7,997 bases of DNA from a virus. Lineage: Duplodnaviria; Heunggongvirae; Uroviricota; Caudoviricetes. The stretch is taken from IMG/VR virus record IMGVR_UViG_2671181111_000009; one strand, written 5' to 3'. Positions 1,546-7,762 of the stretch are shown in pieces. The translations under genes and the position numbers were made by a program. Each line of letters starts with the position of its first letter. Positions within the stretch are counted from its first letter, which is position 1. Below the pieces are notes generated by a model. The model was not told where the DNA came from, made no database searches, and worked only from the letters and a program-made list of their open reading frames with translations.

Positions 1546-1559
1546 TTTTGACAAGATAG

Positions 1560-1581
1560 TTTTCCCCAAATGTGGGGAAAA
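1560..1581. other. Perfect 9-bp inverted repeat TTTTCCCCA-aatg-TGGGGAAAA (possible operator or RNA hairpin)
   Basis: Read directly: arms 1560-1568 and 1573-1581 are exact reverse complements; no downstream U-tract on either strand. Confidence 0.4.
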
Positions 1582-1623
1582 GCACGAATGGCGCGGCTTA
1601 CAGCAAGATAAGGCCTACATGAT

Positions 1624-1653
1624 TTGACAACACCGCATTAACGGGGCTATATT
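1624..1653 (+). promoter_or_regulatory. Candidate sigma70 promoter (TTGACA -35 at 1624-1629; TATATT -10 at 1648-1653; 18-bp spacer)
   Basis: Consensus -35 hexamer and 5/6 -10 hexamer in an intergenic region; predicted TSS near 1660. Confidence 0.35.
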
Positions 1654-1662
1654 CCGCTTCAT

Positions 1663-1677
1663 GGTGCTGAACACACC
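1663..1677 (+). other. Hairpin GGTG-CTGAACA-CACC (7-nt loop CTGAACA)
   Basis: Inverted repeat read directly; lies just downstream of the candidate promoter. Confidence 0.35.
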
Positions 1678-1691
1678 TTGCAAAGCGGAAA

Positions 1692-1720
1692 CCGCACCCG
1701 TCAGTCATGCGGATTTTTTA
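1692..1720 (+). terminator. Weak intrinsic-terminator-like hairpin CCGCA...TGCGG followed by ATTTTTTA
   Basis: 5-bp GC-rich stem (1692-1696 / 1708-1712) with 11-nt loop, then T-tract 1714-1719. Confidence 0.3.
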
Positions 1721-1819
1721 TGTCCATTTTTCAGATATGGTCGGGTAGCGCGTATACCGAAAAACAGCCGAAAGGTTAAGGATACGGGCCGACTTTGCAC
1801 GGTGTTCAAGTACCTGACC

Positions 1820-1838
1820 GCCCTGCTGAACACAGGGC
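1820..1838 (+). other. Hairpin GCCCTG-CTGAACA-CAGGGC (same 7-nt loop as hairpin at 1663-1677), about 30 nt upstream of the AntA-like start
   Basis: Perfect 6-bp inverted repeat with loop CTGAACA; the 10-mer GCTGAACACA is exactly repeated at 1666-1675 and 1825-1834; a third CTGAACA at 1842-1848. Confidence 0.4.
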
Positions 1839-1866
1839 TATCTGAACAAATGCAAAGGACATAAAA

Positions 1867-2490
1867 ATGACCAGTCAACTCATCCCCGTATTCAACGGCA
1901 CTATATCCAACGAAACAACTCTTCTCGTTAATGCCCGTGATTTACACGAATTTTTGGAAGTACGTCGTGACTTCTCTACATGGATTAAAAATCGCATAAC
2001 AGAATACGGCTTTGCCGTTGATGTCGATTACATTTTGGTTCACCAAAACAGGGGGATCAAAGGACGTGGAGGCGATCGCCGTAGCAAAGACTATCACCTC
2101 ACCCTCGATACAGCCAAAGAAACGGCGATGGTCGAGCGTAACGAAAAAGGCCGCCAGATACGCCGATACTTCATCGAGTGCGAAAAGAAACTTCGCAGCA
2201 TGCAACCAGCGCAGCAATTCACAGACGAAGAAATCATCCTCCTTTGCTATATGCAGGTACAGATGGAGAATGCGCAGGACATCTGCAAACGTCTGTACCC
2301 GATATTGAAGGAACTGAACTCATCATACACGAGCAAGCTGTATGACATCGCGTTTGAAACTTTTTACACGGTGACGAAAAACAGAGATGTACTGCTAAGG
2401 GAGGCGACACGACTTGACCAAGCAAGCGCCCTTTTCGAACGGGCAAAACCAATGCTGAAAAGCCTTCGGGCGAGACAATTCGAATTTTAA
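1867..2490 (+). CDS. AntA/AntB-domain antirepressor-like protein (N-terminal AntA domain about residues 1-110; C-terminal about 95 aa of unknown function)
   Basis: ATG 1867 with SD AAGGA (1855-1859, 7-nt spacer); N-terminus LIPVFNGT...LVNARDLHEFLEV..DFSTWIKNRITEYGF...DYHLTLDTAKE.AMVE...GRQIRRYFI matches the AntA-domain pattern of phage antirepressors as I recall it. Confidence 0.65.
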   Translation: MTSQLIPVFNGTISNETTLLVNARDLHEFLEVRRDFSTWIKNRITEYGFAVDVDYILVHQNRGIKGRGGDRRSKDYHLTLDTAKETAMVERNEKGRQIRRYFIECEKKLRSMQPAQQFTDEEIILLCYMQVQMENAQDICKRLYPILKELNSSYTSKLYDIAFETFYTVTKNRDVLLREATRLDQASALFERAKPMLKSLRARQFEF

Positions 2491-2590: not shown

Positions 2591-2793
2591 AGGAGTGGAA
2601 CGCACGCCAGCGACGCCCAAGGAGCCTTGAAACAGTTCGTCGATGGGTACGCGAGTGCAGGATATTCCCTCCTCCGGTTAAGGATGGAAGAGAGTATTTG
2701 TTCCACGAATCAGCGGTAAAGGTTGACTTAAATCGACCAGTAACAGGTAGCCTTTTGAAGAGGATCAGAAATGGGAAGAAGGCGAAGTCATGA
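2575..2793 (+). CDS. xis: Excisionase Xis (lambda type), 72 aa
   Basis: Translation MYLTLQEWNARQRRPRSLETVRRWVRECRIFPPPVKDGREYLFHESAVKVDLNRPVTGSLLKRIRNGKKAKS recognised as lambda Xis; SD GGAG 8 nt upstream; overlaps int by 23 bp. Confidence 0.95.
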   Translation: MYLTLQEWNARQRRPRSLETVRRWVRECRIFPPPVKDGREYLFHESAVKVDLNRPVTGSLLKRIRNGKKAKS

Positions 2794-3841
2794 GCGCCGG
2801 GATTTACCCCCTAACCTTTATATAAGAAACAATGGATATTACTGCTACAGGGACCCAAGGACGGGTAAAGAGTTTGGATTAGGCCGAGACAGGCGAATCG
2901 CAATCACTGAAGCTATACAGGCCAACATTGAGTTATTTTCAGGACACAAACACAAGCCTCTGACAGCGAGAATCAACAGTGATAATTCTGTTACGTTACA
3001 TTCATGGCTTGATCGCTACGAAAAAATCTTCGCCAGCAGAGGAATCAAGCAGAAGACACTCATAAATTACATGAGCAAAATTAAAGCAATAAGGAGGGGG
3101 CTGCCTGATGCTCCACTTGAAGACATCACCACAAAAGAAATTGCGGCAATGCTCAATGGATACATAGACGAGGGCAAGGCGGCATCAGCCAAGTTAATCA
3201 GATCAACACTGAGCGATGCATTCCGAGAGGCAATAGCTGAAGGCCATATAACAACAAACCCGGTCGCTGCCACTCGCGCAGCAAAATCAGAGGTAAGGAG
3301 ATCAAGACTTACGGCTGACGAATACCTGAAAATTTATCAAGCAGCAGAATCATCACCATGTTGGCTCAGACTTGCAATGGAACTGGCTGTTGTTACCGGG
3401 CAACGAGTTGGTGATTTATGCGAAATGAAGTGGTCTGATATCGTAGATGGATATCTTTATGTCGAGCAAAGCAAAACAGGCGTAAAAATTGCCATCCCTA
3501 CAACATTGCATGTTGATGCTCTCGGGATATCAATGAAGGAAACACTTGATAAATGCAAAGAGATTCTTGGCGGAGAAACCATAATTGCATCTACTCGTCG
3601 TGAACCGCTTTCATCCGGCACAGTATCAAGGTATTTTATGCGCGCACGAAAAGCATCAGGTCTTTCCTTCGAAGGGGATCCACCTACCTTTCACGAGTTG
3701 CGCAGTTTGTCTGCAAGACTCTATGAGAAGCAGATAAGCGATAAGTTTGCTCAACATCTTCTCGGGCACAAGTCGGACACCATGGCATCACAGTATCGTG
3801 ATGACAGAGGCAGGGAGTGGGACAAAATTGAAATCAAATAA
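2771..3841 (+). CDS. int: Tyrosine integrase Int (lambda type), 356 aa
   Basis: Translation MGRRRSHERRDLPPNLYIRNNGYYCYRDPRTGKEFGLGRDRRIAITEAIQ... through ...HLLGHKSDTMASQYRDDRGREWDKIEIK recognised as lambda Int, including the catalytic R..HxxR..Y region. Confidence 0.97.
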   Translation: MGRRRSHERRDLPPNLYIRNNGYYCYRDPRTGKEFGLGRDRRIAITEAIQANIELFSGHKHKPLTARINSDNSVTLHSWLDRYEKIFASRGIKQKTLINYMSKIKAIRRGLPDAPLEDITTKEIAAMLNGYIDEGKAASAKLIRSTLSDAFREAIAEGHITTNPVAATRAAKSEVRRSRLTADEYLKIYQAAESSPCWLRLAMELAVVTGQRVGDLCEMKWSDIVDGYLYVEQSKTGVKIAIPTTLHVDALGISMKETLDKCKEILGGETIIASTRREPLSSGTVSRYFMRARKASGLSFEGDPPTFHELRSLSARLYEKQISDKFAQHLLGHKSDTMASQYRDDRGREWDKIEIK

Positions 3842-3940
3842 TGATTTTATTTTGACTGATAATGACCTGTTCGTTGCAACAAATTGATAAGCAATGCTTT
3901 TTTATAATGCCAACTTAGTATAAAAAAGCAGGCTTCAACG
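3841..3940 (-). other. attL (B-O-P'): P' arm with arm-type Int sites, 15-bp core (3915-3929), short B arm
   Basis: Reverse complement reads ...TGAAGCCTGCTTTTTTATACTAAGTTGGCATTATAAAAAAGCATTGCTTATCAATTTGTTGCAACGAACAGGTCATTATCAGTCAAAATAAAATCATTATT, i.e. chromosomal B arm, lambda core and lambda P' arm; arm sites overlap the int stop as in lambda. Confidence 0.88.
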
Positions 3941-5259: not shown

Positions 5260-5275
5260 GAGCTATTAACTATTT

Positions 5276-5385
<110 letters not shown>

Positions 5386-5399
5386 TCACATGGCGCTTT

Positions 5400-7633: not shown

Positions 7634-7762
7634 ATATACTCTAAATAATTCGAGTTGCAGGAAGGCGACAAGTGAGTGAATCCCCAGGAGCTTACATAAG
7701 TAAGTGACTGGGGTGAGCGAACGCAGACGCAGCACATGCAACTTGAAGTATGACGAGTATAT
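7634..7762. repeat. ERIC (enterobacterial repetitive intergenic consensus / IRU) element
   Basis: Contains GTGAATCCCCAGGAGCTTACAT and AAGTAAGTGACTGGGGTGAGCG, exact matches to the ERIC1R (reverse complement) and ERIC2 primer sequences, with the characteristic central inverted repeat. Confidence 0.85.

Follow-up and report, generated by a model that had tools for sequence, protein, structure and literature searches.

A probable self-contained antisense-RNA cassette, with an RNA of the sRNA-Xcc1 family, upstream of a phage AntA-like gene

Between an ORF6N-domain gene and an AntA-like gene, the phage DNA analysed here (a stretch of 7,997 nt, called the window throughout) has a region of 321 nt (1546-1866), in which a promoter, a leader, a structured RNA and several short complementary sequences follow one another. 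These features are listed below in order along the window.

838-1545, gene with a match to the ORF6N domain, on the other flank of the region
1624-1653, plus strand, sigma-70 promoter (-35 TTGACA at 1624-1629, 18-nt spacer, -10 TATATT at 1648-1653; predicted start at about 1660/1661)
1663-1677, plus strand, leader hairpin 1 (GGUG/CACC), whose loop holds target site a1 (CUGAACAC at 1667-1674), complementary to a'
1679-1685, plus strand, target site b1 of the leader (UGCAAAG), which can pair with b' (1793-1799) and belongs to one of 13 covarying b'/b1/b2 triples
1685-1695, plus strand, small hairpin GCGG-AAA-CCGC, a predicted antiterminator that competes with the terminator 5' arm
1692-1719, plus strand, intrinsic-terminator-like hairpin (CCGCA at 1692-1696, 11-nt loop CCCGUCAGUCA, UGCGG at 1708-1712, U6 at 1714-1719)
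1739-1827, plus strand, sRNA-Xcc1-family RNA of about 85 nt (Rfam RF02221; P1 1739-1747/1811-1819, P2 about 1751-1786, P3 1788-1791/1800-1803, 3' tail GCCC)
1793-1799, plus strand, antisense element b', the CUUUGCA of the P3 loop, which the centroid fold leaves without a partner; complementary to b1 and b2
1802-1808, plus strand, antisense element a' (GUGUUCA), which covers the two final pairs of P3 and the P3-P1 junction
1820-1838, plus strand, hairpin 2 (GCCCUG/CAGGGC; -9.3 kcal/mol, z -3.2), whose loop holds target site a2 (CUGAACAC at 1826-1833)
1842-1848, plus strand, single-stranded target site a3 (CUGAACA), 6 bp with a'
1851-1859, plus strand, target site b2 (UGCAAAG at 1851-1857), which shares bases with the AntA-like gene's Shine-Dalgarno, AAGGA (1855-1859)
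1867-2490, plus strand, AntA-like gene, the putatively regulated gene (207 aa; AntA/AntB N-terminal domain, PF08346, 2e-26; P22 antirepressor C-terminal domain, PF10548, 1.2e-9)

Through its AntA and P22_AR_C domains, the downstream gene belongs with the antirepressor, lytic or toxic functions that mark the genes under control of C4/IsrK-type systems.

The promoter, which the first-pass annotation had already described as a near-consensus sigma70 promoter, matches the consensus at 11 of 12 positions and is the sole promoter match in 1300-2100. Its TTGACA and its -10 hexamer (TATATT or CATACT) are kept in all related variants compared, and one 14-mer of it, CGGGGCTATATTCC, is common to the isrK promoter in a related locus, L076. 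The GGTG-CTGAACA-CACC hairpin noticed in the same reading is present as well, with weak folding (-2.7 kcal/mol, z -1.2), and the leader taken whole is not unusually stable (z -0.3). As for the terminator-like hairpin and U-tract, which had been placed at 1692-1720, its stem is just 5 bp long with an 11-nt loop (-4.7 kcal/mol), and it was missed by the hairpin scan because this loop is longer than 8 nt. This hairpin is nevertheless kept in all relatives compared, a run of at least five T is found within 90 nt upstream in 90 of 103 sRNA-Xcc1 family members, and its position is that of the experimentally shown IsrK terminator (PMC4825925). It would close a leader RNA of about 60 nt, and the predicted elements support the earlier proposal of a regulatory leader of the AntA-like gene, in which a promoter is followed by a short terminated leader. 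Between b1 and the terminator, G1685 is both the last base of b1 and the first base of GCGG (1685-1688). The GCGG-AAA-CCGC hairpin, which would act as an antiterminator, has a probability of 0.93 in the free leader by computed folding, and the b1-GCGG-N3-4-CCGC arrangement is kept across the E. coli variants.

The RNA that follows belongs to Rfam family RF02221: it scores 68.3 bits over the full length of the model (positions 1-87 of 87), the gathering score being 53 and the whole-window E-value 3.7e-11, and it has the three-way junction of the family, made of P1, a long P2 and the P3 hairpin. P1 and P2 are recovered by folding the single sequence, P1 covaries among 92 relatives (44 combinations, each keeping no fewer than 6 consecutive pairs), and P3 has 4 bp here, two non-canonical pairs being flagged in the model alignment. 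Of 103 family members, 92 have a CC in the first 4 nt that follow P1. The C4 (RF01695) and isrK (RF01394) covariance models give no match in 1600-1900 at E<=10, and membership of the core or leader in either was rejected; both models do score well in L076, L001 and L002. What the locus shares with these families is a common architecture and promoter sequence, and it would work like C4/isrK systems without belonging to either family. No tRNA or tmRNA was found in the region, and a reading as an N/nut boxA-boxB site was also rejected, the UGAAAA loops and the boxA (C)GCTCTTT of Stx2a_WGPS6 being missing from the cassette. The sRNA-Xcc1 core, the TGCAAAG repeat and the internal reverse complements of both repeats had been overlooked in the first-pass annotation.

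What ties these elements together is complementarity. The element a' can form 7 bp each with a1 and a2 and 6 bp with a3, and b' can form 7 bp each with b1 and b2, i.e. elements exposed on the RNA are complementary to sites both upstream and downstream of it, as in C4/IsrK systems, and as in these systems the downstream target (b2) lies over the ribosome-binding site (AAGGA, 1855-1859). The repeats on which this rests had in part been recognised: the 10-mer GCTGAACACA does occur exactly twice (at 1666 and 1825), the GCCCUG-CUGAACA-CAGGGC hairpin is found at 1820-1838 and a third CTGAACA at 1842-1848. These three CTGAACA copies (1667, 1826 and 1842) are the only ones on the plus strand of the window, where about 0.57 would be expected by chance (0.023 per 321 nt), and all lie in the region.

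In related cassettes, these sites change together. Among 40 distinct cassettes upstream of AntA homologues there are 13 different b' loops, and for all 13 a match is present in the leader; 12 of them also have a match of at least 6 Watson-Crick pairs by the Shine-Dalgarno, the 13th requiring one G-U pair. In a cross-matrix of the variants, every row has its cognate partner as the top match, alone or in a tie. The a sites covary in the same way, a CUCAAAA loop being paired with a UUUUGAG a' in the Nil2 type, and CUCGAAA with UUUCGAG in the L065 type. For 73 distinct P3 loops from Proteobacteria, complementarity of at least 6 nt to b1 is found in 89% of cognate versus 7% of non-cognate pairs, complementarity to b2 in 55% versus 5%, and both together in 47% versus 0.9%. 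RNAduplex energies run in the same direction, with means of -27.7 (cognate) versus -20.0 kcal/mol (non-cognate) for leader-core pairs and -19.8 versus -14.4 kcal/mol for UTR-core pairs, but they are noisy because GC-rich stems cross-pair, and are of supporting use only. The evidence for covariation thus consists of exact-complement searches and cognate/non-cognate matrices, as MAFFT alignments of cores or of whole cassettes did not yield a structural register (RNAalifold on one core alignment gave only 8 pairs).

The same comparison shows how far the layout is kept. A hairpin follows P1 in all variants compared, with differing stems. In some variants an a site lies outside any hairpin loop, and in L065-type cassettes a2 is single-stranded and the loop of hairpin 2 is UUUU. 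In the related cassettes in which b2 can be located, 8-11 nt separate its end from the start codon, and it abuts or overlaps the Shine-Dalgarno. In Xanthomonadaceae-type members, a1/b1 and a terminator/T-tract are present in the leader and no b2 is detectable within 90 nt downstream, which means that blocking of the ribosome site is not universal in the family.

An sRNA-Xcc1 core lies upstream of the AntA homologue in 76 of 79 homologous loci, and an isrK-C4 cassette occupies the identical position in three of the 79, so the two cassette types are positionally equivalent. The family at large is consistently found about 40-60 nt upstream of Ant-, Rha-, Bro-N-, ORF6N- and SymE-type genes. Of 5426 complete E. 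coli genomes, 127 contain the exact variant of the window, with no annotation of the RNA; E. coli FDAARGOS_943 is one strain whose region is identical, and the Stx2a_WGPS6 copy is 99% identical in the RNA and downstream sites (96% over the whole 321-bp region). In E. coli EDL933, the sole sRNA-Xcc1 listed, upstream of the Ant gene EDL933_RS07045, is very abundant in published data (RPKM 25609) and almost free of ribosome footprints (coverage value 0.02); the published coordinate and the locus lie about 86 nt apart after correction for a 2.5-kb assembly offset.

We consider it probable that the region is a self-contained antisense-RNA cassette of the type of P1 c4, P4 CI and Gifsy-1 IsrK, in which the antisense RNA is of the sRNA-Xcc1 family, because its layout is the same as that of isrK-C4 cassettes and because addresses and targets covary. 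The strong, constitutive promoter (1624-1653) would give a leader with the decoy or sensor sites a1 and b1, closed by a weak terminator, and read-through transcripts would hold the RNA of about 85 nt (1739-1827) followed by the 5' UTR of the AntA-like gene. The RNA would present two short addresses, one (b') in the loop of P3 and the other (a') in the junction beside the closing stem, which would pair with a2/a3 and with the Shine-Dalgarno-overlapping b2, and thereby block translation of the antirepressor, in cis on its own transcript and probably in trans once excised. Binding of the same addresses to a1/b1 of the nascent leader is predicted to break the antiterminator hairpin and let the terminator form, by which the RNA would curb both its own synthesis and antirepressor transcription. 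The transcript ends, an RNase P-type excision, repression as the direction of control and this terminator switch are all what we infer. In silico, blocking b1 including G1685 raises the terminator probability from 0.06 to 0.92, and across 14 variants blocking b1 raises the mean from 0.05 to 0.56, the predicted switch hinging on a difference of 1-2 kcal/mol and on one shared nucleotide. Points that speak against this model are that the duplexes are just 6-7 bp each, that two a' bases sit in the P3 stem, and that the trans effect demonstrated for IsrK, the one relative studied by experiment, is activation by the short leader, not repression by the core.

The closest known counterpart is isrK-STnc1160 (C4-like)-anrP of Salmonella Gifsy-1 (Hershko-Shalev et al. 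2016, PMC4825925), in which the isrK promoter gives a short terminated RNA and a translationally silent read-through mRNA, with a stable processed RNA, STnc1160, between the two. Its strong promoter shares CGGGGCTATATTCC with the window, and the cassettes of Gifsy-1 and Stx phages (RF01394 plus RF01695) have the same succession of (i) a leader whose a-site occupies a hairpin loop, with a b-site and an intrinsic terminator (a terminator-like hairpin in the window), (ii) read-through, predicted for the window, to an RNA of about 85 nt with b' in a loop, a' in a junction and a CCC tail, and (iii) a 5' UTR with a2 and with b2 over the Shine-Dalgarno, ahead of an antirepressor-like gene. The L076 cassette illustrates this well: a1, in the loop of an isrK hairpin, b1 and a terminator come first, followed by a C4 RNA that has b' in the loop of its second hairpin and a' in the junction ahead of the closing stem, and then by a CCC tail, a2, and b2 on top of the Shine-Dalgarno. 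Its promoter and its distance from the AntA homologue are the same as in the window. The IsrK analogy drawn in the first-pass annotation fits: isrK and C4 cassettes are found at exactly this position in L076 and L077, and the two types substitute for one another there. Unlike C4, the core in the window is of another Rfam family, its closing stem measuring 9 bp where that of C4 has 17, its J1/2 junction 3 nt, and its long P2 containing an internal loop, AAUACAAYACCC...GGGRAAUA, that is conserved; unlike IsrK, which has two leader hairpins, the window has one; and unlike Gifsy-1, it has no orf45-type upstream ORF and its b2 lies directly on the antirepressor Shine-Dalgarno.

Of the older systems, P4 seqA-CI RNA (seqB)-seqC likewise has a processed leader RNA complementary to sequences up- and downstream of itself, IsrK being described as a structural homologue of P4 seqA (PMC4825925), and C4 and CI RNAs are both RNase P substrates (PMC5499578). 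Pairing of P4 CI RNA leads to premature transcription termination (PMC4825925; PMC3632133), which matches the terminator switch predicted, on thermodynamic grounds only, for the window. P4 differs in that it controls replication genes, with no antirepressor, and in that its mechanism as described is not a Shine-Dalgarno translation block. P1 c4 blocks ant translation at the ribosome-binding site and is the basis of P1/P7 heteroimmunity (PMC12197685). In P1/P7 immI c4-icd-ant (Citron & Schuster 1990, as summarised in PMC12197685), a co-transcribed antisense RNA sets a'/b' against a1/b1 and a2/b2, and the block at the ribosome-binding site prevents antirepressor synthesis, as predicted for the window. 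The RNA family of the core is a different one, and heteroimmunity through address differences is comparable to the 13 b specificities of window-type cassettes. The block in P1 falls on the icd ribosome site and affects ant indirectly, whereas in the window the blocked site would be the antirepressor's own; to our knowledge, no terminator has been described between a1/b1 and c4 of P1.

A reading that overlaps with the cassette proposed above, the main difference being the RNA to which the signal is assigned, makes the terminated leader of about 60 nt (about 1661-1719), with a1 and b1, the main regulator. As an IsrK-like activator in trans, this leader would be an anti-antisense RNA that binds a' and b' in the read-through mRNA, frees a2, b2 and the Shine-Dalgarno and turns AntA translation on, the core RNA being merely a cis-acting silencer. 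This is possible, although we doubt it. Short IsrK in trans does raise anrP translation more than 100-fold at isrK-orf45(STnc1160)-anrP (PMC4825925), a1/b1 are the most widely conserved targets (89% versus 55% for b2), and the pairing of leader and core is on average the stronger one (-27.7 kcal/mol, versus -19.8 kcal/mol for UTR and core). However, the trans-acting repressor in P1 and P4 is the processed core RNA (PMC4825925; PMC12197685), no short leader transcript is separately listed near the EDL933 copy in the main text of PMC5331693, and the free leader is predicted to favour read-through over termination, so that short leader RNA would not necessarily be plentiful. It is unlikely that the RNA is instead a trans-acting sRNA against host (or plant) mRNAs, to whose function the flanking repeats are irrelevant. 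Such a role is what Chen et al. (2011), as cited in later literature, give for sRNA-Xcc1, as a trans-acting sRNA controlled by HrpG/HrpX, and it fits with the abundance of Xylella homologues, which are present in vesicles, and of the EDL933 copy. Yet the variable addresses always match sequences of their own cassette, and at least 13 specificities among near-identical E. coli cassettes are not what would be expected of an RNA that tracks a conserved host target; the consistent position of the family upstream of Ant-like and SymE-type genes argues in the same direction. The RNA may have additional trans targets besides its own cassette.

The first-pass annotation had taken the identical loops for paired recognition sites of an RNA- or DNA-binding factor, a view that did not survive the comparison, because the loops are complementary to GUGUUCA of the intervening RNA and change together with it. 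A protein reading, for example an N-type antiterminator on boxB-like hairpins, could appeal to the order of promoter, hairpin and terminator, which is the classical nut-site arrangement, and to the GCCCUG stem of hairpin 2, which we take to resemble lambda boxB. We nonetheless rate it very improbable. The boxB hairpins of Stx2a_WGPS6 are GGC-UGAAAA-GCC (nutL) and UCGC-UGAAAA-GCGA (nutR), with boxA upstream and no CTGAACA near either; moreover, the loops covary with a segment of the RNA encoded between the hairpins, a2 is single-stranded in the L065 type, where hairpin 2 has a UUUU loop, and the b-site repeat and its complement in the P3 loop would be left unexplained. The CUGAACA motifs are most likely docking sites for the encoded RNA, not protein sites. 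It is even harder to believe that the region codes for a protein and that the repeats are coding features. There is an ATG-initiated frame of 67 codons (1661-1864), which ends 2 nt before the AntA start, but it has no Pfam match, crosses the terminator and the conserved structured RNA, and is kept in the nearest variants only: in the Nil2 and L079 types the same ATG opens a frame that ends after 6-8 codons, other variants have no such frame, and the ribosome coverage value of the EDL933 homologue is 0.02. Owing to this restricted and broken frame, we regard the region as non-coding, and the original description of a non-coding stretch between two antirepressor-type genes, here with ORF6N and AntA/P22_AR_C domains, is borne out.

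The suggestion that the module is undescribed has to be given up in part, since its type has been known since P1 c4, P4 CI and IsrK; for the sRNA-Xcc1 family in a C4 role, no description was found in the literature searched. The Xanthomonas campestris sRNA-Xcc1 is of the same Rfam family as the RNA in the window, and Xanthomonadaceae leaders have a1/b1 and a T-tract, but the literature (Chen et al. 2011) describes it as a trans-acting, HrpG/HrpX-controlled sRNA. The family has also been found upstream of symE in integron cassettes (bioRxiv 10.1101/2025.06.18.660453). The chances seem to us evenly balanced that the members of the whole sRNA-Xcc1 family are self-targeting C4-like riboregulators with a leader-terminator switch, a third such class and a widespread one, and not trans-acting virulence sRNAs.

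If this is true, each member would have an address in two parts (P3 loop and junction) that can be re-programmed freely and that recurs in the member's own leader and, as a rule, at the ribosome site of the toxic or antirepressor gene that follows, and binding to the leader would be an RNA-triggered terminator switch that works through the one-nucleotide overlap of b1 and antiterminator. Address variants would then be orthogonal immunity channels in bacteria with several prophages, and the cassette would explain how antirepressors of co-resident prophages are controlled separately. This matters because antirepressors decide the lytic switch of prophages, those of Shiga-toxin phages included. 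As a functional counterpart of C4 and CI, sRNA-Xcc1 would provide a concrete and testable mechanism for a widely annotated family, very abundant in EHEC EDL933, whose members in plant pathogens are at present taken for trans-acting virulence sRNAs, and its address variants on one scaffold (at least 13 in E. coli and at least 73 family-wide) are potentially a set of orthogonal riboregulators. The family-wide reading takes in copies from Stx/lambdoid prophages, Pasteurellaceae, Neisseria, Desulfovibrionaceae, alphaproteobacteria, the Xylella islands and the symE cassettes of Xanthomonas integrons.

Between the terminator and the second hairpin of the intergenic region 1546-1866 lies an RNA that the first-pass annotation had missed, together with its complementary segments and a second repeat (UGCAAAG). 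In the Rfam scan, sRNA-Xcc1 (RF02221) matches over its full length at 1739-1827, scoring 68.3 bits where the gathering score is 53. The segments of this core and the sites complementary to them are named after P1 c4: a' and b' belong to the RNA, a1 and b1 to the leader, and a2, a3 and b2 to the 5' UTR of the AntA-like gene.

Core segments and complementary sites (window positions, + strand)
1679-1685: b1, UGCAAAG, between hairpin 1 and the terminator
1793-1799: b', CUUUGCA, in the P3 loop; reverse complement of the repeat UGCAAAG
1802-1808: a', GUGUUCA, at the junction of hairpin P3 and closing stem P1
1851-1857: b2, UGCAAAG, overlapping the Shine-Dalgarno AAGGA of the AntA-like gene

The features reported earlier around this core are present. 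The sigma70 promoter (TTGACA-18-TATATT at 1624-1653, an 11/12 match) is the sole promoter-like match in 1300-2100, both hairpins are found (GGTG-CTGAACA-CACC at 1663-1677 and GCCCTG-CTGAACA-CAGGGC at 1820-1838), the duplicated 10-mer GCTGAACACA occurs exactly twice and the third CTGAACA completes a set of three copies in the entire window, all inside 182 nt, with 0.57 expected. The terminator-like hairpin (CCGCA, an 11-nt loop and TGCGG, then T6) is weak, and is absent from the scan listing because of its loop size. What is not supported is the idea that the CUGAACA loops are factor-binding sites: a' of the core is the reverse complement of UGAACAC, found in each hairpin loop, and also matches the third CUGAACA over 6 nt, and loops and RNA change together. 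A protein (boxB) reading is contradicted, the nutL and nutR boxB loops of phage Stx2a_WGPS6, whose copy of the RNA and downstream sites is 99% identical to the window, being UGAAAA. A 67-codon ORF filling the region is not conserved; in relatives of the Nil2 and L079 types, the frame stays open for only 6-8 codons.

The analogy with IsrK proposed at first reading turned out to be apt. A combined isrK and C4 cassette (RF01394 and RF01695) fills the same position at three AntA loci and, judging from the L076 locus, its architecture is the same, point by point, as that of the window cassette: (i) the promoter has CGGGGCTATATTCC in common with the window, (ii) the IsrK hairpin loop holds a1 (UUGAGAC), followed by b1 (CUAAGAGA) and the terminator, (iii) in C4, the second hairpin loop holds b', the junction that precedes the closing stem holds a', and CCC comes next, and (iv) a2 and b2 come after C4, b2 covering the Shine-Dalgarno. 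The C4 and isrK models find no match on the window at E<=10, and the locus is therefore classed as working like those systems rather than as a member of either Rfam family. In Gifsy-1, it was found by experiment that the isrK promoter yields a short terminated IsrK and a translationally silent read-through isrK-orf45-anrP mRNA, from which the stable RNA STnc1160 is processed, and that short IsrK is a trans activator of translation; the same study regards IsrK as structurally homologous to P4 seqA (PMC4825925). For Barquist et al., IsrK corresponds to seqA and C4 to CI RNA (PMC3632133); the c4 and c4-a1b1 motifs were defined by Weinberg et al. In P1, c4 prevents translation of ant by acting around the ribosome-binding site, and it is the basis of P1/P7 heteroimmunity (PMC12197685). 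RNase P substrates include C4 and CI (PMC5499578). Phage Nil2 has the two cassette types back to back, isrK+C4 before antA and sRNA-Xcc1 before antB (1493-1678 and 2501-2745 of its locus), and so does P13374 (L002). In a 2001 GenBank note, the antA/antB split is read as an ant gene that a 'putative bacterial retrotransposon' has disrupted. In one prophage (L066, 3246-4976), the D1-D4 and domain V/VI models mark a group II intron just downstream of the AntA homologue.

Relatives show covariation consistent with this pairing. Some 30 Stx2a phages match the full 321 bp at 94-96% identity. In Nil2, 2851, phi191 and P13374, only the promoter-hairpin-terminator part (1623-1732) is recognisable (82-83%), between antA and antB, and the core is also present at these loci (79 bits). 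Nil2 has CUCAAAA in both loops facing UUUUGAG in the junction, and CAAGUAG b sites facing a CUACUUG P3 loop, and therefore RNA and targets changed together. Among 79 viral-contig loci with AntA homologues, 76 have the core, whose end is ~40 nt from the gene in most cases; a tandem pair is present in 13. These 93 cores reduce to 40 distinct cassettes with 13 different b' loops, each of which (13/13) has an exact complement in its own leader; a Watson-Crick complement of at least 6 nt abuts the Shine-Dalgarno for 12, the 13th needing one G-U pair, and b2, where placeable, ends 8-11 nt before the start codon. When the longest complements are cross-compared, the cognate partner is best or tied-best in every row, with means of 7.7 nt for cognate vs 5.2 nt for other leaders, and 7.3 vs 4.8 for UTRs. 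The a sites likewise covary (GUGUUCA, UUUUGAG, UUUCGAG), their pairing being shorter (5-6 bp, some with G-U) in a CATACT-promoter subgroup.

In tandem cassettes, the upstream of which precedes an AntA-like start, cores are 537 nt apart in L050, L052 and L065 and 883 nt apart in L055; Xylella Temecula1 has five copies ~381 nt apart within a genomic island (PMC12189769). Such arrays suggest that cassettes duplicate and recombine as units. Stx2a_WGPS6 (AP012539) has, besides its window-type cassette near int, a second one (~13330-13560) upstream of a nin-region antirepressor (Ant) gene with different addresses (a sites UCAGAA, b sites CUAAAG), so that one genome has two apparently orthogonal channels.

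The same relationship was tested across the family. Scanning for the pattern in a single genome of each species gave 120 loci, from which 112 cores were obtained, with hosts among Xanthomonadaceae, Pasteurellaceae, Neisseriaceae, Enterobacterales, Desulfovibrionaceae, Azospirillum, Sphingomonadales and others. P1 shows extensive covariation (44 combinations, median of 9 consecutive pairs), a T-tract lies upstream of the core in 90/103 members and CC follows P1 within 4 nt in 92/103. For 73 distinct P3 loops, a complement of at least 6 nt was found in 89% of cognate vs 7% of non-cognate leaders, in 55% vs 5% of 5' UTRs, and in both in 47% vs 0.9%. Downstream products sampled include Rha with P22_AR_C/ORF6C, ORF6N, Bro-N, SymE toxin and HTH proteins. 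Most members lacking b2 are of a 75-nt Xanthomonadaceae type, which has been described upstream of symE in integron cassettes (2025 preprint, bioRxiv 10.1101/2025.06.18.660453). At such loci (L084, L086, L092 and others), the cores retain a1/b1 and the leader T-tract, no b2 complement was detected within 90 nt downstream and several downstream ORFs are SymE toxins; control there may be transcriptional only, or the target may be elsewhere. Conservation of the leader-terminator loop (window 1697-1707; CACCCGUCAG / CACCCGAUAG), seen in the leaders of L097, L153, L041 and others, reaches from E. coli to Aggregatibacter and Thiospirillum, which is unusual for a terminator loop; the loop resembles the P1 3' strand (CACCCGACC), and its complementarity to the P1 5' strand amounts to 7 bp in L041-type cassettes.

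What is established here is the complementarity, its covariation at three places, membership of the sRNA-Xcc1 family and the equivalence of position with isrK-C4. By analogy with the precedents, pairing of b' to b2 and of a' to a2/a3 would cover the Shine-Dalgarno and leave the antirepressor untranslated, in cis on transcripts that read through, and probably also in trans once the RNA has been released by RNase P-type excision. A purely trans-acting RNA aimed at host targets, in line with the searchable literature where sRNA-Xcc1 is a trans-acting, virulence-associated sRNA (or is simply noted upstream of ORF6N or symE genes), would leave the match between address and own cassette unexplained. 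A possible, if less likely, alternative is an IsrK-like variant whose active signal would be the short leader RNA; it fits most of the evidence and is compatible with occlusion by the core.

Folding raises an additional feature of the occlusion model. Transcripts from the predicted start (~1660) lack the upstream CCGC (1654-1657), and in their leader GCGG(1685-1688):CCGC(1692-1695) has a predicted probability of 0.93 vs 0.06 for the terminator. Blocking b1, including its last base G1685, takes the terminator to 0.92 (on average, from 0.05 to 0.56 over 14 variants); blocking a1 alone, or b1 without G1685, has no effect on the fold. In transcripts from upstream, which contain CCGC 1654-1657, the terminator is predicted to form directly. 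The RNA could thereby trigger P4-CI-like attenuation, feeding back on synthesis of itself and of the antirepressor mRNA, a step that we regard as tentative, and somewhat doubtful, because the energy differences are small.

Evidence of expression is indirect and comes from a relative. The only sRNA-Xcc1 listed by Neuhaus et al. in EHEC EDL933 has 40,293 reads and an RPKM of 25,609, exceeding CsrB and RNase P RNA in their table, with a ribosome coverage value of 0.02. Once a 2.5-kb assembly offset is corrected, the family member near the published coordinate, an L041-type cassette, is directly upstream of the antirepressor gene EDL933_RS07045, with ~86 nt of residual discrepancy. As for the suggestion of an undescribed module, the mechanism class has been known since 1990; what is new is the link of sRNA-Xcc1 to the c4/CI/IsrK mechanism, which was not found in the searchable literature. 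The family has no clan assigned in Rfam, and RefSeq annotation of the RNA is lacking in the 127 E. coli genomes carrying the window variant.

The window itself covers the integrase-proximal arm of a lambdoid prophage, inserted in a chromosome of the E. coli type.

Genes and att site around the cassette region (1546-1866)
838-1545, + strand: ORF6N-domain gene, upstream neighbour
1867-2490, + strand: AntA + P22_AR_C gene, downstream neighbour (ATG at 1867)
2575-2793: excisionase gene
2771-3841: lambda-type integrase gene
3915-3929: lambda att core TTAGTATAAAAAAGC, between the integrase gene and a pectinesterase-family (ybhC-like) gene

Owing to this position of the att core, the window spans the prophage-chromosome junction at att-lambda. 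Beyond it come the pectinesterase-family gene and then an aconitase-family gene, an order like that of ybhC and ybhJ beside att-lambda in E. coli K-12. Sub-threshold Rfam matches at 5262-5397 / 7634-7757 comprise naRNA4/REP-like palindromes that separate the two host genes and, close to where the aconitase-family gene ends, a V_AS5-like element (46 bits vs a gathering score of 96). Finally, the promoter-proximal CATGATTTGACAA (1618-1630) is repeated further upstream as CATGATTTTGACAA (1543-1556), which overlaps the stop codon of the ORF6N gene and is followed 3' by a 9-bp hairpin, TTTTCCCCAAATGTGGGGAAAA (1560-1581), without a T-tract on the + strand; together they may be a remnant of another cassette's promoter or a 3' stabiliser of the upstream gene.
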